64,000 nucleotides of DNA, taken from the IMG/VR virus record IMGVR_UViG_2917886563_000007, one strand, 5' to 3'. Numbering within the stretch: the first letter of the stretch is position 1; the number at the start of each line of letters is the position of its first letter. Source of the stretch: a virus. Lineage: Duplodnaviria > Heunggongvirae > Uroviricota > Caudoviricetes. Under the pieces are notes generated by a model. The model did no database searches. It was given only the letters and a program-made list of their open reading frames with translations, and had not been told where the DNA came from. The position numbers and the translations under genes were made by a program. Of the stretch, positions 25,057 to 51,676 are shown in pieces.

Positions 25057-25061
25057 CCGTT

Positions 25062-25640: not shown

Positions 25641-26197
25641 AAAAACCCCTGCCCGTAAGCTGGGCTGCTGAACATATAGAGACTTCTGCGCGTATTCAGG
25701 CGGTGGATGGCCGCCGGTGTCATAACTAAGCCGCCTCGTTGAAGCGACTGAGGTATGAAGTATCGAGTTGATTTCAGCTGGTCACACCGACGTTCACGCG
25801 TCCGTTTCACCCCTCGCACTCCCCGTAGCCTGCTGAAATTCAAGCTGCGGATCTAAGCGGTCATCGCAACGGTGAAGCGGTAAATCAGGAGATTGCCGCA
25901 TTCCTGTGCCGTTGTGATGGATTTATAATACCTATTGCTATTGATTATATCAATACGTATAAGTATCGAGCGATAGCGTTTGTTGTTATGCTGTTGATAC
26001 TGAAAAGAATTTAATGTTGAGGTTTTTTGTGACATTCGACTCAAAATGGATTTTGCAATTAAATAACCAATTGATAACAATGAAAACATTACGGAGAACT
26101 AGATAGGCCAAATTACTTGCCACGAAGATAGTTGTAAGCGTTGATAACAATGGTATTGAGGAGGGATACCCCCGACAATTGCGTCAGGGGGGAGGGA

Positions 26198-26584
26198 TTA
26201 TTGGGCTTTAATGTAATTTTTCAACTTTGCAGTTTGCTCTACAGCGCTAGGAATGCATCCAAACATATTTGCGCATGAAGTTTGAACAACAATTTCGTTC
26301 TTATCGTTTCCTAAAGGTGTTTTTACAACCTGATATCCAAGCACGGCACTATTTCCAATAGGAGTGTATGTGGAAATTACCGTTTCATCTGCCATCTGAA
26401 TTTTCCAACCAGAATTCATTGCTATCCAAGCTTTGGCTCTCGACCAATATGTATCGCATTGCTCTTTACCTTGACAGTAAACTGGTTGTTGAGCTTGTGC
26501 GGCAATTTGGGGATCTATTTTCTGAGCACATCCAGAGATGCTAATCAGAATAGCTGCTGTAACGAATAGTTTTCTCATTGACAT
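26198..26584 (-). CDS. lipoprotein encoded downstream of repressor (rexAB position); candidate superinfection-exclusion protein
   Basis: 128-aa ORF with lipobox MSMRKLFVTAAILISISGC; same strand as cI, 43 bp downstream of it. Confidence 0.6.
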   Translation of the reverse strand: MSMRKLFVTAAILISISGCAQKIDPQIAAQAQQPVYCQGKEQCDTYWSRAKAWIAMNSGWKIQMADETVISTYTPIGNSAVLGYQVVKTPLGNDKNEIVVQTSCANMFGCIPSAVEQTAKLKNYIKAQ

Positions 26585-26626: not shown

Positions 26627-27318
26627 TTATCCGTGTTTTCTATATGTCTGCGGCATGCTTCCAATGACTTTACCGAAGATGAACACTCGGTTCATCTCGT
26701 CTTTCTCGATCGGGTCCCACGGTGAGTAGCTCTTGTTATCAGAGATAACCAGCAGCTTATCCTTCATCATTTGCAGGCGCTTTACATGGGCTGTGTCGTC
26801 GTACAGAAACGCATAGATACCATCACCGTCGAAAGATTTAACTGTGATATCAACGAACAGCAGATCACCTGGTTCGATCGTTCCTGACATGCTGTCACCG
26901 CGCACGTTAATGATGCGGATATTTTCCGCCTTCCTGCCATCGAACATGTGACGAGCATCGTCAAACGAGTACTCAACCGAGCGTAGAACTTCTACAAACT
27001 CACGATTGATGACACCCGGCCCGGCACTGACTTCTATATCAAGAACGTCAATCTTGAAGTATTTGGAATGGTTGACAGCAGGCTTTTCTGATTGTTGACC
27101 GTCATTTCTCATCGGGCCTATGCCTGACGAGAGCCACTCTGTTCGAACACCCAATGCATTAGCTATTTCAACAATTTTTGTTGAGCCGCGCGCGTTGCCG
27201 CTTGTCAGTCTCCAGATTGTGGGTTGAGCTACGCCAGACGCCTTTGCAAGAGCGCCTTGAGACATTCCAGATTGTTCCATCGCTAGGTTTAAGCGATCAG
27301 CAAGAGTTTCTTTTTTCA
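26627..27318 (-). CDS. cI: prophage repressor (CI-like; HTH + S24 LexA-like peptidase domain)
   Basis: ORF 26627..27388; probable start MKKETLADRLN…; HTH (…MSQGALAKASGVAQPTIWRL…) and C-terminal S24 motif …GDSMSGTI…G…KRL…. Confidence 0.85.
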
Positions 27319-27422
27319 TAAGTTTTAATTTATACGCTTGCGTATTGATGGTCAAAAACGTTTTGCTATTGCTTGAGTTAATACGCATTGCTATTATCTA
27401 TTTATTGCAATACCAATAGGAA
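27319..27422. promoter_or_regulatory. OR operator/promoter region between divergent cI and cro
   Basis: Inverted-repeat sites atacgcttgcgtat and taatacgcattgctatta and related half-sites in a 104-bp divergent intergenic region. Confidence 0.6.
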
Positions 27423-27656
27423 TTGATAATGACAAATCAAACCATTCAACTCGCAATCAGTATTACAGGTAGTCAAAAACGACTGGCAGATCTCTGCGGT
27501 GTAGCCCAACCCACGGTTTGGCGTTGGCTACACGGTGGCGGAATTGATGCCCGCTATGTAATGAAAATTGTCTCAGCCACTGGTGGAAAGATTAAACCAG
27601 CAGATATTCGTCCCGACCTCGCACCATTGTTTAACGCGAGTAATTCTGCCGCCTAA
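27423..27656 (+). CDS. cro: Cro-like HTH regulator
   Basis: 77-aa ORF with HTH (…QKRLADLCGVAQPTVWRWL…), divergent from repressor. Confidence 0.7.
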   Translation: MIMTNQTIQLAISITGSQKRLADLCGVAQPTVWRWLHGGGIDARYVMKIVSATGGKIKPADIRPDLAPLFNASNSAA

Positions 27657-27686
27657 TCTGCGGCGTTAACTGATAAGGCAATTACT

Positions 27687-28226
27687 ATGCAACCACTTAC
27701 ATACCAACAGACTAGCGGATTTAGCCCGACTGCGGTGATAAATCGTTCTCAAACAAAACAGGCGCCAGGCCACGAAAAAATCCGTGATGCCGTTCGCGCC
27801 TGGTCGGCTGCAGATAATCAGGATGTTGTTGCCGCACTCATTGTGAATGAGTATCGGGAGCTGGGCGGCGGCACCATCGATTTCCCTGATGATGTCAGCC
27901 GTGCACGCCAGAAGTTGTTCCGCTTCCTCGATAACAAATTCGATTCTGAAAAATACCGAAATAACGTGCGTGAACTGACCCCGGCAATTCTGGCGGTACT
28001 ACCGCTGGAATATCGCGGCCACCTGGTTGAGCAGGATAGCTTTATGGCTCGGCTGGCTGAAATGGAAAAGGAACTCAGTGAGGCAAAGCAGGCGGTCATT
28101 CTCAACGCACCACGCCACCAGAAACTGAAGGAAATGAGTGAAGGTATTGTGTCGATGTTTCGTGTGGACCCAGATCTGGCTGGTCCACTGATGGCGATGG
28201 TCACCACCATGCTGGGGGCAATATGA
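27687..28226 (+). CDS. hypothetical protein in cII position
   Basis: 179-aa ORF between cro and O; not recognisably CII-like. Confidence 0.45.
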   Translation: MQPLTYQQTSGFSPTAVINRSQTKQAPGHEKIRDAVRAWSAADNQDVVAALIVNEYRELGGGTIDFPDDVSRARQKLFRFLDNKFDSEKYRNNVRELTPAILAVLPLEYRGHLVEQDSFMARLAEMEKELSEAKQAVILNAPRHQKLKEMSEGIVSMFRVDPDLAGPLMAMVTTMLGAI

Positions 28227-29242
28227 CAGGTTCAGAAATGGCGAAAGCCGGTCTGCTGGAACAGAACCGACTTTCAGGTGCAAATCGTAACGCACTCATT
28301 GCGGGAGGAATTATGGCAAACACTGCTGAGATATTCAATTTTCCAGTGCCGGATGTGGCACAAAAGGAGCCGCGCGTGGCAGATCTCGATGATGGTTATA
28401 CGCGCATTGCTAATGAGTTGCTGGAAGCTGTGATGCTGGCCGGATTAACACAGCACCAGCTTCTGGTCTTCCTGGCTGTCATGCGCAAAACATATGGCTT
28501 TAATAAAAAAATGGATTGGGTGAGCAACGAGCAACTTTCCGAGTTAACCGGGATATTGCCGCACAAGTGTTCTGCTGCAAAAAGTGTTCTGGTAAAGCGT
28601 GGGATTTTTATTCAGAGCGGGCGGAATACCGGCATTAATAATGTGGTCAGTGAATGGTCAACATTACCCGAATCAGGTAAGAAAAATAAAGTTTACCTGA
28701 AAGAGGTAAATTTACCTGAATCAGGTAAAAAAAGTTTACCCAAATCAGGTAAAGACGTTTACCTGAATCAGGTAAACACAAAAGACAAACTAACAAAAGA
28801 CAATATAAAACCTTATTCGTCCGAGAATTCTGGCGAATCCTCTGACCAGCCAGAAAACGACCTTCCTGTGGTGAAACCGGATGCTGCGATTCAGAGCGGC
28901 AGCAAGTGGGGGACAGCAGAAGACCTGACCGCCGCAGAGTGGATGTTTGACATGGTGAAGACCATCGCGCCATCAGCCAGAAAACCGAATTTTGCAGGGT
29001 GGGCTAACGATATCCGCCTGATGCGTGAACGTGACGGACGTAACCACCGCGACATGTGCGTGCTGTTCCGCTGGGCATGCCAGGACAACTTCTGGTCCGG
29101 TAACGTGCTAAGTCCGGCCAAACTCCGCGACAAGTGGACCCAACTCGAAATCAACCGTAACAAGCAACAGGCTGGCGTGACAGCCGGAAAACCAAAACTC
29201 GACCTGACGAACACTGACTGGATTTACGGGGTGGAGCTATGA
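28223..29242 (+). CDS. O: replication initiator O (lambda-like C-terminus, distinct N-terminal specificity domain)
   Basis: 339-aa ORF; C-terminal third matches lambda O as recalled (…NFAGWANDIRLMRERDGRNHRDMCVLFRWACQDNFWSGNVLSPAKLRDKWTQLEINRNKQ…); ori iterons inside. Confidence 0.9.
   Translation: MTGSEMAKAGLLEQNRLSGANRNALIAGGIMANTAEIFNFPVPDVAQKEPRVADLDDGYTRIANELLEAVMLAGLTQHQLLVFLAVMRKTYGFNKKMDWVSNEQLSELTGILPHKCSAAKSVLVKRGIFIQSGRNTGINNVVSEWSTLPESGKKNKVYLKEVNLPESGKKSLPKSGKDVYLNQVNTKDKLTKDNIKPYSSENSGESSDQPENDLPVVKPDAAIQSGSKWGTAEDLTAAEWMFDMVKTIAPSARKPNFAGWANDIRLMRERDGRNHRDMCVLFRWACQDNFWSGNVLSPAKLRDKWTQLEINRNKQQAGVTAGKPKLDLTNTDWIYGVEL
28666..28776. repeat. ori iterons (5 copies of ~19-bp tttacctgaatcaggtaaa-like site) followed by A-rich region
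   Basis: Copies at about 28666, 28692, 28711, 28735, 28758; each internally palindromic; followed by A-rich stretch 28777-28812. Confidence 0.85.
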
Positions 29243-30236: not shown

Positions 30237-30511
30237 GGTTGACGATAACTAATATCTGGCGCTATATTCTGTGCGTTGCCGCAAAATCGGCACACGGGAT
30301 TGGCGTCCCGGATAAGGTAATCGCGACTACTACACGCCGCGAGCGTGTTTTTTATTGTCGTAAGCATACGCACATCTGAATTATGGTGGGGCGTGTAGGG
30401 CCGACTTCGGTCGGGCCGGTTGATTACCCCGGTTACGCCAACCCTACATGTCTCACCACCAAACTGATTGGCGTCAGCGGTGGTGGTTAACTTGATTTAT
30501 AGGTAATCATC

Positions 30512-31117
30512 ATGAGCACACAACTAGTCTTTCATCAAACAAAATTCCATCCTGTTAAACACAACAACAGTATCTGGCTTACTGCCGTTGAGATTGCTCA
30601 AGCTCTCGGATATAAAAAATCTGATGCCGTAACTCAGATCTACGATCGAAATTCCGATGAATTTAGGGCAGATATGACTGAGACCCTCAATTTGAGTGTC
30701 TCAGGGAACTACCAGAAAACAATACGCATTTTCTCCCTCCGTGGTGCCCATTTGATCGCTATGTTCGCCCGCACTCCTGTAGCCAAAGAATTCCGCCGCT
30801 GGGTTCTGGATATTCTCGATCGAGAAGTTCAACAATCCCCAATCACAAAACAATTCACTGATAACGAACTTTGCACACTCGCCTGGTTATGGCGAGCAGG
30901 GGATGTGATGTTAACCGCCTGCCAGAATGTTACTCCACTTCTTCAGGTTGCGGAGCATCGCGAAGCCGGTCGCTTTACTTCTATTGAGCAAGAATATCCC
31001 CAGATACTACATAAGGCGCGCGAAATCCTTGCCAGAGAAACGGCACATGTAAGATTCCAGCCGTGGCAGGATGATAAGTGGAGCCGAGTATTGCCGCATT
31101 TGCGTTCTGAGCAGTAG
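30512..31117 (+). CDS. BRO-N domain protein (antirepressor-like)
   Basis: 201-aa ORF; N-terminal BRO-N-like region (…HPVKHNNSIWLTAVEIAQALGYKKSDAVTQIYDRNSDEF…). Confidence 0.6.
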   Translation: MSTQLVFHQTKFHPVKHNNSIWLTAVEIAQALGYKKSDAVTQIYDRNSDEFRADMTETLNLSVSGNYQKTIRIFSLRGAHLIAMFARTPVAKEFRRWVLDILDREVQQSPITKQFTDNELCTLAWLWRAGDVMLTACQNVTPLLQVAEHREAGRFTSIEQEYPQILHKAREILARETAHVRFQPWQDDKWSRVLPHLRSEQ

Positions 31118-31395: not shown

Positions 31396-32073
31396 TCAGT
31401 CGATGGATTCTCCGTAGGATGCAACTGCCTGAGCGACGCAAAAACGATCAATACACTCTATTTCTCCATAATCACGCAGGCAATAATAAGTATTATTGTC
31501 TTTATCAAAAGCGTAAATGCTACAAATACCCTCAAGCTCACAACTTGCGTCCCATCCACTATTAGATAACGTGCCCCATTCCTGGTAAAGCCCTGCGTTA
31601 ACTTCTCGATTGATAATATGCGGTCCACTATAGTTATCATAATCGTAACTATAGATGTCACGTGCCTCAGGAAAATTCCCGTTCATGTTTTCAATCCACG
31701 GTAAAATATCTTTAACTGAGTTATAAAGTTCAATGCTGTATTTGAAAAAACGCTTCACAATAAAAACATAGATGCCGGCAGATTTGTTTGTTGATTTATC
31801 AGTGGCGAAAATGACAAAAATCTTCCCAACGCACTTTTCATCTACGCCCGGAAAAGTTACTGTGCCATCCTGGCTAACCGCCAGAACATTATTGTCTGCA
31901 TTAGTGCTACAGGTCCATTTTACCTTGTCATTATTAATAGGGTCATTATCAATGACCATCTTGAAGGTTGCTCCTGGGAACAAACTGTTAGGGAAACAGT
32001 AACCACTCTCCATATCATTTTTAATATCATAGATATGGCTATCAACTAACACGCCTGTAATTTTGCTCATCAT
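31396..32073 (-). CDS. hypothetical low-GC moron protein
   Basis: ORF 31396..32118; probable start MMSKITG; Asn/Asp/Tyr-rich, AT-rich codon usage unlike flanking lambda-like genes. Confidence 0.5.
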   Translation of the reverse strand: MMSKITGVLVDSHIYDIKNDMESGYCFPNSLFPGATFKMVIDNDPINNDKVKWTCSTNADNNVLAVSQDGTVTFPGVDEKCVGKIFVIFATDKSTNKSAGIYVFIVKRFFKYSIELYNSVKDILPWIENMNGNFPEARDIYSYDYDNYSGPHIINREVNAGLYQEWGTLSNSGWDASCELEGICSIYAFDKDNNTYYCLRDYGEIECIDRFCVAQAVASYGESID

Positions 32074-32584
32074 TGAACTCTCTTTGTTTGTTAAATAAAA
32101 AGTTTTATTCCTGAACAACGGAACACGCTGATATTAATGCAACCAATGAATTGTTGTTGTTATTTGGAGGTTATATAGTGGTATGAATGTTATTATGCGA
32201 TGTCTCTGAGTGATGGGGTAAGGATTATATGATTCGCTTTTGAGATTTACCTATGTCAGGCGTTGCTGTTCATGTTCGTCCCCGTTGTCAGTCTTCTTAG
32301 TCTGAGCTAATGTCATCATCAATGGGTTATCAGTTTTCTCTGAAGTTATATAATTAATTGAGCGCCATAGCACCATGGGGCATTGTTGAATTTCATCTTC
32401 AATTGATTTTCCATAATCAACTCGCCATAATCATGTCATCGGAGCCTGAACACCTCCGGTGACTTCTGCGCTAAACGGGGACGTTTATGCGCACACACAA
32501 TCTAAACTCTCTTCTCCCTTCACAGATGCAGAAATGCACCTGCGATTTTTTGCATCCAACGTTTGACCTCTGCGGAGGTGAAGC

Positions 32585-33852: not shown

Positions 33853-34068
33853 TGTGTGAGTCATATATGGCAGAACTCCTTCGCTACCGCTGGGGGCGCC
33901 TGCGCTTATATCGTTTCCCGGTTCTGTTTTGACCGATTACCGGATACTGAAGAATTACGCCAAAACACTGGCAGAGACAATTGTATGAAGCCAGAGATAA
34001 CGATCGGTTGATGCCGTTTTATTGTTTTTTGCTGCCAATTGGCGTGCTGGTGTAAATGGAGAGCGAGA

Positions 34069-34821
34069 ATGAATCTTGAGGCCTTACCAAAATATTACTC
34101 CCCAAAATCTCCAAAATTGAGCGATGACGCACCGGCGACAGACTCAGGTGGTTTATCAATTACGGATGTGATGGCTGCGCAGGGGATGGTGCAGTCGAAA
34201 GCACCGCTTGGGTTTGCCTTATTCCTGGCAAAAGTTGGTGTTCAGGACCCTCAGTTTGCGATTGAAGGTCTGCTCAATTACGCGATGGCACTGGATAACC
34301 CGACATTGAATAAATTGAGTGCAGAAACACGGTTACAGATTATTCCTTACCTCGTGAATTTTGCCTTTGCTGATTATTCCAGGTCTGCGGCAAGTAAGGC
34401 TCGCTGTGAGCATTGTGCTGGTACGGGATTTCATAATGTATTGCGCGAAGTGGTGAAACATTCCAGAAGCGGGGAATCCGTTATCAAGGAAGAGTGGGTG
34501 AAGGAACTATGTCAGCATTGTCATGGTAAGGGAGAAGTCAGCACAGCGTGCAGAGGGTGTAAGGGTAAAGGTATTGTCCTGGATGAAAAAAGGACCCGGC
34601 TTCATGGCACGCCTGTTTATAAGATTTGTGGGCGTTGCAATGGAAACCGGTTTAGCCGTTTACCAACCACACTGGCGCGGCATCATGTCCAGAAACTGGT
34701 ACCGGACCTGACGGATTATCAGTGGTACAAGGGGTATGCTGATGTTATTGATAAACTGGTTACAAAGTGCTGGCAGGAAGAAGCATATGCAGAAGCACAG
34801 TTGAGAAAGGTGACAAGATAA
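34069..34821 (+). CDS. Q: late antiterminator Q (non-lambda type, zinc-finger rich)
   Basis: ORF 34039..34821; ATG 34069 after GGAG; CxxC…CxxC clusters (CEHCAGTG…CQHCHGKG…CRGCKGKG…CGRCNG); position between rusA and lysis genes. Confidence 0.6.
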   Translation: MNLEALPKYYSPKSPKLSDDAPATDSGGLSITDVMAAQGMVQSKAPLGFALFLAKVGVQDPQFAIEGLLNYAMALDNPTLNKLSAETRLQIIPYLVNFAFADYSRSAASKARCEHCAGTGFHNVLREVVKHSRSGESVIKEEWVKELCQHCHGKGEVSTACRGCKGKGIVLDEKRTRLHGTPVYKICGRCNGNRFSRLPTTLARHHVQKLVPDLTDYQWYKGYADVIDKLVTKCWQEEAYAEAQLRKVTR

Positions 34822-34950: not shown

Positions 34951-35188
34951 GTGTTTTAAATGGGGAGGTGGCTGGATGTCTAAAATAAACATTGCTTCCA
35001 AGTGTACAACTATGCGTTAATGGCTGCGTCGGTTTGAAGAACAGACGATATACGAAGTAGTTTACTAAAGCAGTTCTCATTTCAGGTGTTATTCACTTAT
35101 TCCTTCTTTGAGTCTCTCCAATTAAGTACGAAGTCGTTTCTGTTATACAAATCATTTATGCCGAAAGGCTCAAGTTAAGGAATGTAGA

Positions 35189-35404
35189 ATGTCAAATAAA
35201 ATGACTGGTTTAGTAAAATGGTTTAACGCTGATAAAGGTTTTGGCTTTATTTCTCCTGTTGATGGTAGTAAAGATGTGTTTGTGCATTTTTCTGCAATTC
35301 AGAATGATAATTATCGAACCTTATTTGAAGGCCAAAAGGTTACCTTCTCTGTAGAGAGTGGTGCTAAAGGTCCTGCAGCAGCAAATGTCATTATTACTGA
35401 TTAA
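35189..35404 (+). CDS. cold-shock protein (CspA family; CspB/CspI-like prophage copy)
   Basis: 71-aa ORF with RNP motifs KGFGFI and VFVHF. Confidence 0.9.
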
Positions 35405-35603
35405 AATTCATAGCTTGTCTGTATACGATAACGAAGAAGGCTGATGCCTGAGTAGAGATGCAGATAGAGTTGTGGGTATTGAATCCCATTTTGTGGTGAA
35501 GTGCAGGTTTGCTGCATGAATAGTTTTACAGTAGAAGCTAACTGCTGGCATAGCAATACAAAGTGCGTAAGTGGGTAACTACCACAAAAAGCACCACAAT
35601 CTC

Positions 35604-49122: not shown

Positions 49123-51676
49123 ACCGGTAGGCGATCTGGTCGTTGATTTAAGTCTGGATGCGGCCAGATTTGACGAGCAGATGGCCAGAGTCAGGCGTCA
49201 TTTTTCCGGTACGGAAACTGATGCGAAAAAAACAGCGGCAGTCGTTGAACAGTCAATGAACCGGCAGGCGCTGGCTGCACAGAAAGCGGGGATTTCCGTC
49301 GGGCAGTATAAAGCCGCCATGCGTATGCTGCCTGCGCAGTTCACCGACGTGGCCACGCAGCTTGCAGGCGGGCAAAGTCCGTGGCTGATCCTGCTGCAAC
49401 AGGGTGGTCAGGTGAAGGACTCCTTCGGCGGGATGATCCCCATGTTCAGGGGGCTTGCCGGTGCGATCACCCTGCCGATGGTCGGGGCCACCTCGCTGGC
49501 GGTGGTGACCGGTGCGCTGGCGTATGCCTGGTATCAGGGCAACTCAACCCTGTCCGATTTCAACAAAACGCTGGTCCTTTCCGGCAATCAGTCGGGTCTG
49601 ACGGCAGATCGTATGCTGGTCCTGTCCAGAGCAGGGCAGGCGGCAGGGCTGACGTTTAACCAGACCAGCGAGTCACTCAGCGCACTGGTTAAGGCGGGGG
49701 TAAGCGGTGAGGCTCAGATTGCGTCCATCAGCCAGAGTGTGGCGCGTTTCTCCTCTGCATCCGGCGTGGAGGTGGACAAGGTCGCTGAAGCCTTCGGGAA
49801 GCTGACCACAGACCCGACGTCAGGGCTGACAGCGATGGCGCGCCAGTTCCATAACGTGACGGCGGAGCAGATTGCGTATGTTGCTCAGTTGCAGCGTTCC
49901 GGCGATGAAGCCGGGGCATTGCAGGCGGCGAACGAGGCCGCAACGAAAGGGTTTGATGACCAGACCCGACGCCTGAAAGAGAACATGGGCACGCTGGAAA
50001 CCTGGGCAGACAGGACAGCACGGGCATTCAAATCCATGTGGGATGCGGTGCTGGATATTGGTCGTCCTGATACCGCTCAGGAGATGCTGATTAAGGCAGA
50101 GGCTGCGTTTAAGAAAGCGGACGACATCTGGAATCTGCGCAAGGATGATTATTTTGTTAACGATGAAGCGCGGGCGCGTTACTGGGATGATCGTGAAAAG
50201 GCCCGTCTTGCGCTTGAAGCCGCCCGAAAGAAGGCTGAACAGCAGAGTCAACAGGACAAAAATGCGCAGCAGCAGAGCGATACCGAAGCGTCACGGCTGA
50301 AATATACCGAAGAGGCGCAGAAGGCTTACGAACGGCTGCAGACGCCGCTGGAGAAATATACCGCCCGTCAGGAAGAACTGAACAAGGCACTGAAAGACGG
50401 GAAAATCCTGCAGGCAGATTACAACACGCTGATGGCGGCGGCGAAAAAGGATTATGAAGCGACGCTGAAAAAGCCGAAACAGTCCGGCGTGAAGGTGTCT
50501 GCGGGCGATCGTCAGGAAGACAATGCTCATGCTGCCCTGCTGACGCTTCAGGCAGAACTCCGGACACTGGAGAAGCATGCCGGAGCGAATGAGAAAATCA
50601 GCCAGCAGCGCCGGGATTTGTGGAAGGCAGAAAGTCAGTTCGCGGTACTGGAGGAGGCAGCACAACGTCGCCAGCTGTCCGCACAGGAGAAATCCCTGCT
50701 GGCGCATAAAGACGAGACGCTGGAGTACAAACGCCAGCTGGCTGCACTTGGCGATAAGGTCACGTATCAGGAGCACCTGAATGCGCTGGCGCAGCAGGCG
50801 GATAAATTCGCACAGCAACAACGGGCAAAACGGGCAGCCATTGAGGCGAAAAACCGGGGGCTGACTGACCGGCAGGCAGCGCGGGACGCCACGGAACAGC
50901 GCCTGAAGGAACAGTATGGCGATAATCCGCTGGCGCTGAATAGCGTCATGTCAGAGCAGAGAAAGACCTGGGCGGCTGAAGACCAGCTTCGTGGAAGCTG
51001 GATGGCAGGCCTGAAGTCCGGCTGGAGCGAGTGGAAAGAGAGCGCCACGGACAGTATGTCGCAGGTTAAAAGTGCTGCCACGCAGACCTTTGATGGTATT
51101 GCGCAGAATATGGCGGCGATGCTGACCGGCAGTGAGCAGAACTGGCGCAGCTTCACCCGTTCCGTGCTGTCCATGATGACAGAAATTCTGCTTAAGCAGG
51201 CAATGGTGGGGATTGTCGGGAGTATCGGCAGCGCCATTGGCGGGGCTGTTGGTGGCGGCGCATCAGCATCAGGCGGTACAGCCATTCAGGCCGCTGCGGC
51301 GAAATTCCATTTTGCGACCGGGGGATTTACGGGAACCGGCGGCAAATATGAGCCAGCGGGGATTGTTCACCGTGGTGAATTTGTCTTCACGAAGGAGGCA
51401 ACCAGCCGGATTGGCGTGGGGAATCTCTACCGGCTGATGCGCGGCTATGCCACCGGTGGTTATGTCGGTACACCGGGCAGCCTGGCGGACAGCCGGTCGC
51501 AGGCGTCCGGGAAGTTTGAGCAGAATAACCATGTGGTGATTAATAACGACGGCACGAACGGTCAGATAGGGCCACAGGCGCTGAAGGCTGTTTATGACGT
51601 AGCCCGTAAGGCGGCAATGGATGTCGTGACCGGGCAGATGCGTGATGGTGGTCTGTTCTCCGGAGGTGGGCGATGA
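49115..51676 (+). CDS. H: tail tape measure protein H
   Basis: 853-aa ORF, lambda gpH-like. Confidence 0.95.
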   Translation: MAEPVGDLVVDLSLDAARFDEQMARVRRHFSGTETDAKKTAAVVEQSMNRQALAAQKAGISVGQYKAAMRMLPAQFTDVATQLAGGQSPWLILLQQGGQVKDSFGGMIPMFRGLAGAITLPMVGATSLAVVTGALAYAWYQGNSTLSDFNKTLVLSGNQSGLTADRMLVLSRAGQAAGLTFNQTSESLSALVKAGVSGEAQIASISQSVARFSSASGVEVDKVAEAFGKLTTDPTSGLTAMARQFHNVTAEQIAYVAQLQRSGDEAGALQAANEAATKGFDDQTRRLKENMGTLETWADRTARAFKSMWDAVLDIGRPDTAQEMLIKAEAAFKKADDIWNLRKDDYFVNDEARARYWDDREKARLALEAARKKAEQQSQQDKNAQQQSDTEASRLKYTEEAQKAYERLQTPLEKYTARQEELNKALKDGKILQADYNTLMAAAKKDYEATLKKPKQSGVKVSAGDRQEDNAHAALLTLQAELRTLEKHAGANEKISQQRRDLWKAESQFAVLEEAAQRRQLSAQEKSLLAHKDETLEYKRQLAALGDKVTYQEHLNALAQQADKFAQQQRAKRAAIEAKNRGLTDRQAARDATEQRLKEQYGDNPLALNSVMSEQRKTWAAEDQLRGSWMAGLKSGWSEWKESATDSMSQVKSAATQTFDGIAQNMAAMLTGSEQNWRSFTRSVLSMMTEILLKQAMVGIVGSIGSAIGGAVGGGASASGGTAIQAAAAKFHFATGGFTGTGGKYEPAGIVHRGEFVFTKEATSRIGVGNLYRLMRGYATGGYVGTPGSLADSRSQASGKFEQNNHVVINNDGTNGQIGPQALKAVYDVARKAAMDVVTGQMRDGGLFSGGGR

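Follow-up and report, generated by a model that had tools for sequence, protein, structure and literature searches.

The locus raises the question of which protein serves the lysis–lysogeny switch of a lambdoid phage in which an ORF of 179 aa, against 97 aa for lambda CII, lies in the cII slot between cro and O (Table 1). The window analysed here is the whole 64,000-nucleotide stretch of an IMG/VR virus record (IMGVR_UViG_2917886563_000007; Caudoviricetes), with a tRNA gene (1369-1441) in its bacterial flank. An earlier note on this DNA had the coordinates, the slot and the size of the ORF right, including the remark that the product is about twice as large as lambda CII. It also held that the protein is unrecognised, that it shows no obvious CII-like helix-turn-helix (HTH) and that the switch may be wired differently; these claims are taken up below with the results that bear on them. 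The gene order is cI, cro (YdaS type), cII, an oop-like RNA, O and P, and cI is divergent. As in the YdaT family, cII lies directly downstream of the YdaS-type cro and is divergent from the repressor gene. P (PF06992, E=9e-62) follows O, and a Ren-like gene comes next.

Table 1. Genes, sites and predicted elements of the switch and ninB regions (positions in the window)
Feature	Position	Strand	Basis or remark
cI repressor	26627-27388 (as listed, 253 aa)	-	HTH_3 and Peptidase_S24; PHROG 4, E=9e-70
Cro-like gene, YdaS family, 75-77 aa	27423/27429-27656	+	Pfam PF15943 YdaS_toxin, E=1e-14; weak P22_Cro
Exact dyad TTGATA-ATGACA-AATCAA	27423-27440		spacer holds the cro ATG (27429)
cII gene, phi80/YdaT type, 179 aa	27687-28226	+	ATG-initiated ORF
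Putative -10 TAGTCT of a leftward, activator-dependent pRE-like promoter	27714-27709	-	invariant A23, T27 and A28
Degenerate dyad GTGATA-AATCGT-TCTCAA	27735-27752		10/12 consensus positions; cII codons 17-22
Replication initiator O	28223-29242 (339-aa ORF as listed)	+	PF04492, E=2e-34
Antisense RNA unit resembling oop/phi80 M3 RNA	28232-28338	-	promoter TTGAAT-17-CATAAT and terminator-like hairpin
Exact dyad TTGATT-TTCCAT-AATCAA	32403-32420 (promoter to 32431)	+	overlaps -35 and spacer upstream of ninB
Two conserved hairpins, 5' end of predicted transcript	32435-32463, 32467-32494	+	covarying stems, loop CCUGAACA

Met1 is likely to be the start of the 179-aa protein because the frame is open, the N-terminal residues are conserved and a purine-rich ribosome-binding site precedes it. 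The N-terminal peptide MQxLTYQQ is kept across genera, and Met1 is near-invariant (25-98 homologues, from many enterobacterial genera). A start at codon 17, where many homologues have Met and the PHROG profile begins, was rejected because the window has GTG without a Shine–Dalgarno sequence at that codon, as against the near-invariant Met1 with its ribosome-binding site, and because none of the 54 distinct homologous genes interrupts the frame. For both neighbours, later starts than those listed are probable. Residue 31 of the long ORF is the first in the PHROG O-like match, suggesting that the functional start of O is at 28313 and that the listed ORF is 30 codons too long. For cI, the true start is probably 27319, which gives 231 aa and agrees with the annotation in Perceval. 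A minus-strand promoter-like sequence, TTGACC-17-TAAATT at 27355-27327, predicts a nearly leaderless, pRM-like cI mRNA; lambda pRM likewise gives a nearly leaderless cI mRNA.

The oop-like unit fills the 86-nt gap between the cII stop codon and the probable O start. Its promoter (28338-28310) reads TTGAAT-17-(TG)CATAAT, and a stable hairpin lies in the same gap. The phi80 M3 region shares the promoter block and the sequence that extends from the terminator T-run into the 3' end of cII; the RNA body between them differs. No Rfam family was found for this RNA. At the other end of cII, a GC-rich hairpin, GCCGC-CTAATCT-GCGGC (27648-27664), is located at the cro stop codon. It may act as a terminator, as a nut-like site or in another way. 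At least 18 loci, whose cro genes differ, have similar GCCGC...GCGGC hairpins at the cro end, and a few others have lambda-like boxA/boxB sequences there instead.

Several further elements surround the switch. Downstream (3') of ren, Rfam matches to isrK (30277-30353, 61 bits) and to C4 antisense RNA (30379-30463, 74 bits) are followed, directly after the C4 RNA, by an Ant-type anti-repressor gene (30512-31117; PHROG 245, E=4e-52), and a sub-threshold Rfam match to the c4-a1b1 target falls in the same region (30262-31117). Judging from these matches, an antirepressor module of the P1/P7 style, controlled by C4, is inserted here after ren. Two AT-rich ORFs without a PHROG function look like morons: one of 240 aa on the opposite strand between ant and ninB (31396-32118, minus strand) and a lipoprotein-like one of 128 aa (PHROG 16082) in the rexAB slot adjoining cI (25853-26584, minus strand). 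These slots vary between otherwise near-identical phages, and Perceval carries other genes there. A cspA-type thermoregulator leader (Rfam RF01766, 156 bits) located 3' of Q (35028-35420) implies a cold-shock-protein moron.

The 179-aa product itself is far from unrecognised: the gene is covered by Pfam, PHROGs and PGAP, and it is annotated in GenBank records of near-identical phages. The protein matches Pfam PF06254 ('YdaT_toxin') with E=7.1e-30 (103.8 bits against a cut-off of 21), as do all 25 aligned homologues, and its residues 17-179 match PHROG 163, 'CII-like transcriptional activator' (E=9.3e-67). In the PDB, YdaT of CP-933P (8bt1) and of E. coli O6 (3c4r) are matched with E=3.9e-5 by the single sequence and 1.2e-8 by a profile of 25 sequences. 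In a translated search, phi80 cII (JX871397 PHI80_49 'CII decision making protein'; X13065 'cII gene') is 66.1% identical over residues 1-179. Genes at the same position in mEp237, HK639, HK225, CobraSix, PHB10 and several Klebsiella phages are 50-73% identical, and most are annotated as cII or CII-like.

The gene is also widespread. In 16 sequenced coliphages, most of which annotate it as cII, it is 94-98% identical in DNA and 95-99% in amino acids; near-identical carriers include 4A7, Lambda_4C10, Perceval, D2, 1W, 3W, the PhiR series, Turner and IdasGreatGrand. At a nucleotide identity of at least 90%, it is present in 2213 of 5426 complete E. coli genomes (41%), with the PGAP name 'toxin YdaT domain-containing protein'. 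A protein search gave 681 homologues; the best 120 of these 681 are mostly 178-180 aa in length, and those among the 120 with a named source come from Citrobacter, Klebsiella, Enterobacter, Kosakonia, Leclercia, Salmonella and others.

With phi80 CII, the window protein shares its full length of ~180 aa, a disordered extension at the N terminus and a conserved tail at the C terminus. The two loci share a small Cro-like gene before cII and, after it, an oop-like RNA ('M3 RNA' in phi80) and an O-like initiator, and both genomes have a perfect dyad ~180 nt upstream of a ninB-like gene. The cI and cro neighbours differ (different immunity), and phi80 has an N gene, whereas no N homologue was recognised left of cI or elsewhere in the window. 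The name cII of the phi80 gene rests on its GenBank annotation and on phi80 genetics papers of the 1980s; on the same grounds, phi80-type CII is presumably required for the establishment of lysogeny (clear-plaque phenotype). In the literature searched, no experiments or biochemistry on the window protein or on the 179-aa phi80 subfamily were found.

A single-sequence AlphaFold2 model was unusable (pLDDT 39), and the model used is that built with 98 homologues (pLDDT 79). It predicts a disordered extension (residues 1-26), a compact POU-like HTH domain of five helices (residues 29-113), a long helix equivalent to the tetramerisation helix of YdaT (residues 119-138) and two extra C-terminal helices (residues 143-178). 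An all-alpha POU-like HTH and then a long oligomerisation helix, as predicted here, is the arrangement of the YdaT family. In a Foldseek search against the PDB, the only significant matches were YdaT 3c4r and 8bt1 (probability 1.0, target-normalised TM 0.67-0.69, 28% identity). The recognition helix (residues ~70-82, SRARQKLFRFLDN) is the best-conserved part common with YdaT; QKLFRFLD of the window protein aligns with QKIFRWLD of 8bt1. Arg79, invariant in 98 sequences, corresponds to R60 of CP-933P YdaT and R57 of Rac YdaT, the DNA-binding arginine of recognition helix alpha3 in those proteins (PMC9986795, PMC11879457). The absence of a CII-like HTH, as claimed in the earlier note, thus holds for the lambda CII type but not for HTH folds at large, as the AlphaFold2 model and Foldseek point to a POU-like HTH. 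The window protein differs from the YdaT proteins (CP-933P 8bt1, E. coli O6 3c4r and Rac) in that identity is only 26-28% and in having ~25 extra N-terminal and ~40 extra C-terminal residues, the latter forming the two more helices of the model.

Profile membership, the 66% identity to phi80 CII, the predicted YdaT-like fold, the invariant arginine of the recognition helix and the gene order together make it highly probable that the ORF encodes a phi80-type CII, i.e., a YdaT-family transcription factor that is a non-homologous functional counterpart of lambda CII. Both the gene and the phi80-type alternative CII are already known, and for the family a structure has been solved and the operator defined.

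YdaS and YdaT are equivalents of Cro and CII, not a toxin–antitoxin pair (PMC5917428, PMC8630535). YdaT of CP-933P, stated to be homologous to phi80 CII, activates PRE933P (PMC8630535), and its solved structure is a 222-symmetric tetramer formed via the long helix (PMC9986795). The operator of the family is an inverted repeat, [T/A]TGATT-N6-AATCAA, which is bound by the tetramer (PMC9986795, PMC11879457). In CP-933P, the site is TTGATT-N6-AATCAA at the ydaS/ydaT junction, and the leftward activity of PRE933P is raised (PMC9986795, PMC8630535). In Rac, the site is ATGATT-N6-AATCAA and overlaps the start codon of ydaT; through this box, Rac YdaT stimulates PracR4, a reverse promoter, by up to 29-fold, the dependent promoter lying ~190 bp from the box (PMC11879457). 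In these homologues (26-28% identical to the window protein), binding of YdaT beside its own gene turns on a leftward promoter, resulting in more repressor and favouring lysogeny (PMC8630535, PMC11879457). Rac YdaT also binds the racR-ydaS intergenic region, lowering racR expression, and controls host rcsA; for CP-933P YdaT, no binding to the cI-cro intergenic region was seen (PMC11879457). The published distances and positions of the sites differ between Rac and CP-933P, indicating that site geometry varies within the family. Rac YdaT and CP-933P YdaT are only 30% identical, yet each recognises the box of the other (PMC11879457). This cross-recognition, together with the conservation of the recognition helix, makes a dyad of the same type a reasonable expectation, by analogy, for the window protein.

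The window contains two exact matches to TTGATW-N6-WATCAA, against 0.03 expected, and none of 100 shuffles gave two or more. Relaxed searches were overall not above chance (6 sites against 4.5 expected with up to two mismatches, 3 against 0.9 with up to one), and only the exact matches and a positionally conserved site within cII were used; dyad-like matches at 25061, 34748 and 34872 were disregarded as probably fortuitous. No dyad scoring at least 10/12 was found near int or xis, so that no analogue of pI can be proposed. As other binders of such dyads, FNR was rejected on its spacing (8 rather than 4 between the pentamers) and IHF on the absence of a TTR element from the sequence. One of the exact dyads covers the cro start, which recalls the protection by Rac YdaT of the ydaS ribosome-binding site and first codons. 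Perceval has one mismatch in it, indicating that this dyad is not strictly conserved. The box nearest to the activator gene lies within the coding sequence in the window, at the start codon in Rac and at the end of ydaS in CP-933P.

The site within cII was followed in 60 homologous loci fetched from different species, in which the upstream cro genes are widely different. When the interval from -60 to +120 was scanned, 48 of the 59 loci covered (57 of those fetched, plus Perceval and the window) had their best dyad at precisely +48 of the gene. The +48 dyad scores 9-12/12 (9-10/12 in most relatives), against a background mode of 7-8. The codons of its spacer encode NR, FE, SQ, YQ, KR or SN depending on the lineage, and the bases of the half-sites are kept. 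When 54 distinct genes, whose proteins share as little as 35% pairwise identity, are aligned by codon, the third base is invariant in just six codons. Three of these are essentially Met or Trp codons; the others are codons 9, 17 and 21, in which the residues vary (N/S/D/G/T/I, M/L/V and A/N/S/F/D/Y, respectively). The bases invariant in the 54 genes are A23, T27, A28, T50, G51, A52, T53, T63 and C64, of which T50-T53 form the core of one half-site and T63-C64 that of the other. For Ile18, ATA is used in 44 genes, ATT in 10 and ATC in none, whereas ATC predominates at four of the five other conserved Ile positions.

Taken on the reverse strand, A28, T27 and A23 spell TAnnnT, with TATTnT as the majority form. 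TAnnnT represents the three most critical positions of the sigma-70 -10 hexamer, and the CII site of lambda pRE also lies within the 5' end of cII. In the window, the putative -10 is weak, and a 17-bp spacer would give a poor, CATCGC-like -35 that overlaps the left half-site. Transcription is predicted to start near 27702, which would place the centre of the dyad at about -41.5; this geometry differs from the ~190-bp distance between box and promoter in Rac. A generic sigma-70 scan gave no leftward promoter at the cro-cII junction; the proposed promoter is below the thresholds of such scans, as expected for a promoter that depends on an activator. As the bases of the dyad and of the reverse -10 are frozen despite the varying residues, we infer that a pRE-type leftward promoter lies within the first 22 codons, with the in-gene dyad as its CII-binding site, and that the disordered 26-residue extension, which lengthens the subfamily beyond YdaT, would largely be a translated control region. 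The constraint on codons 1-26 could also have another cause, such as a translation-initiation structure or an antisense RNA.

In the second exact dyad, the left half-site is at the same time the -35 of a promoter-like sequence, which has a 17-bp spacer and its -10, CATAAT (32426-32431), 5 nt past the dyad. This putative promoter reads toward the Q gene (34039-34821). In the phage 82 record (X92588), a putative promoter is annotated at the same hexamers, and the inverted repeat after it is labelled 'possible regulator-binding site'; phi80 lists this repeat as 'IR4'. The half-sites are invariant in phi80, HK225, HK639, KO-TP1, CobraSix, phage 82 and a Citrobacter prophage, and the 6-nt spacer and the flanks vary; the phi80 dyad has a symmetric change, TTGATA...TATCAA. 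As the dyad is centred near -26, repression would be expected, and the promoter upstream of ninB is a candidate for repression by CII.

The predicted transcript begins with two hairpins (z=-4.3; nine covarying pairs among eight sequences) ~90 nt upstream of ninB, and the whole element spans 32403-32494. No Rfam family was found for the two-hairpin element; the promoter with a two-stem-loop leader recalls, as an analogy, the put antiterminator RNAs of HK022. The hairpin element is present in at least 120 IMG/VR contigs and in phi80, phage 82, HK639, HK225 and CobraSix. Retrieval of the IMG/VR elements did not require the dyad, and a dyad of at least 11/12 accompanies 119 of 127 of them, mostly 42 nt before the loop. 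Among IMG/VR contigs with at least 7.4 kb upstream, a perfect ninB dyad is found in 16 of 20 with a YdaT-type cII; of six with a lambda-type cII, one has a perfect dyad in place, the dyad is shifted in three, and in one the promoter is another. The apparent association of the ninB dyad with YdaT-type cII is suggestive and is confounded by relatedness. The presence of the dyad in some contigs with a lambda-type cII means that it need not be a site for YdaT-type CII.

A circuit can be proposed from these sites. Phi80-type CII would bind the in-gene dyad and activate the leftward pRE-type promoter from about -41.5; the resulting transcript would run antisense through cro into cI, leading to repressor synthesis; and the exact dyads over the cro start and the ninB -35 would be additional, probably repressive, CII sites. 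The complete proposal, in which CII acts through three dyads (the in-gene pRE with its translated operator, the cro start and the ninB -35/leader) and thereby both raises repressor and directly shuts the route to Q, in place of the paQ antisense RNA, is tentative and on balance doubtful.

Three other readings of the gene have to be weighed against a phi80-type CII. One is that the protein is truly, if distantly, homologous to lambda CII and has gained extensions at both termini; in favour of this, the gene occupies the same slot between cro and O, and a short resemblance of the recognition helices, with R-W in both, has been noted (PMC11879457). Against this, none of the 25 family members matches Pfam Phage_CII (PF05269) at E<=1, and hhalign of the family profile with lambda CII aligns only 11 columns, none of them in the HTH, at a probability of 1%. 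Where 5.06 copies of TTGC-N6-TTGC are expected, the 64 kb contain one, which lies in the tail genes at 50815, and the motif is absent near cI, cro, cII, int and Q; the search upstream of int and cI that the earlier note had called for therefore finds no such site, and no pI-type site near int is seen in the window. The published architectures also differ, YdaT being a 222-symmetric tetramer on an inverted repeat and lambda CII a dimer of dimers on a direct repeat (PMC9986795). Homology to lambda CII is thus extremely improbable, and the view that the protein is not a lambda-type CII stands. A hit to a CII/C1-family profile, which the earlier note took as a sign against that view, was obtained in the form of PHROG 163; its 'CII-like' label is functional, and homology to lambda CII was not found. 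What the locus shares with lambda is the slot, an oop-type antisense RNA downstream and, by analogy, the expected role of activating repressor establishment, whereas lambda CII has no detectable homology, half the size and a TTGC direct-repeat operator.

The database names suggest a toxin of a YdaS/YdaT toxin–antitoxin pair ('Bacterial toxin ydaT' and 'Bacterial toxin YdaS' in Pfam, 'toxin YdaT domain-containing protein' as the RefSeq product), and overexpression of Rac YdaT is reported to be toxic (PMC11879457, PMC5917428). The label, however, comes from an algorithmic prediction unconfirmed by experiments, and genetic context and later work make the pair the equivalents of Cro and CII (PMC5917428, PMC8630535, PMC9986795). 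Lambda CII is likewise toxic when overproduced (PMC5917428), the predicted fold is that of a DNA-binding HTH protein, and the gene is part of a complete cI-cro-cII-O-P module. The toxin–antitoxin reading is already largely refuted in the literature, and for the window protein it is very unlikely, if slightly less so than homology to lambda CII. Less remote, although still unlikely, is a YdaT-family DNA-binding protein whose main role is not repressor establishment and which acts only as a repressor (of pR/cro or of the ninB promoter) or as a regulator of host genes. Both perfect dyads lie at positions typical of repression, over the cro start and over a -35 and spacer, the in-gene site reaches only 10/12, and Rac YdaT lowers racR and controls host rcsA (PMC11879457). 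On the other side, both characterised homologues activate a leftward promoter (PMC11879457, PMC8630535), phi80 and many other phages annotate the gene as cII, and the frozen synonymous sites mark a dyad with a reverse -10-like element, as for an analogue of pRE.

With phi80-type CII as the preferred reading, the lack of homology to lambda CII and of TTGC sites near the switch indicates that the establishment branch uses a different fold and an inverted-repeat rather than a direct-repeat operator. To this extent the suggestion of a differently wired switch was borne out; as a novelty it was not, as the wiring has already been explored in work on YdaT of the Rac and CP-933P prophages.

For this large group of lambdoid phages, expectations based on lambda CII (its size and TTGC repeats) fail, and the Pfam/PGAP name 'toxin YdaT' misleads. 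The gene is one of the commonest prophage regulators of E. coli, and the finding itself matters little; value for follow-up lies only in the predicted layout of the sites and in the conserved promoter/hairpin element upstream of ninB, both of which we infer. If CII binds the ninB dyad, it would directly restrain a promoter that reads toward Q, a speculative parallel to lambda paQ. The frozen sites within cII and the ninB dyad with its leader thus bear on the layout of an alternative establishment circuit.
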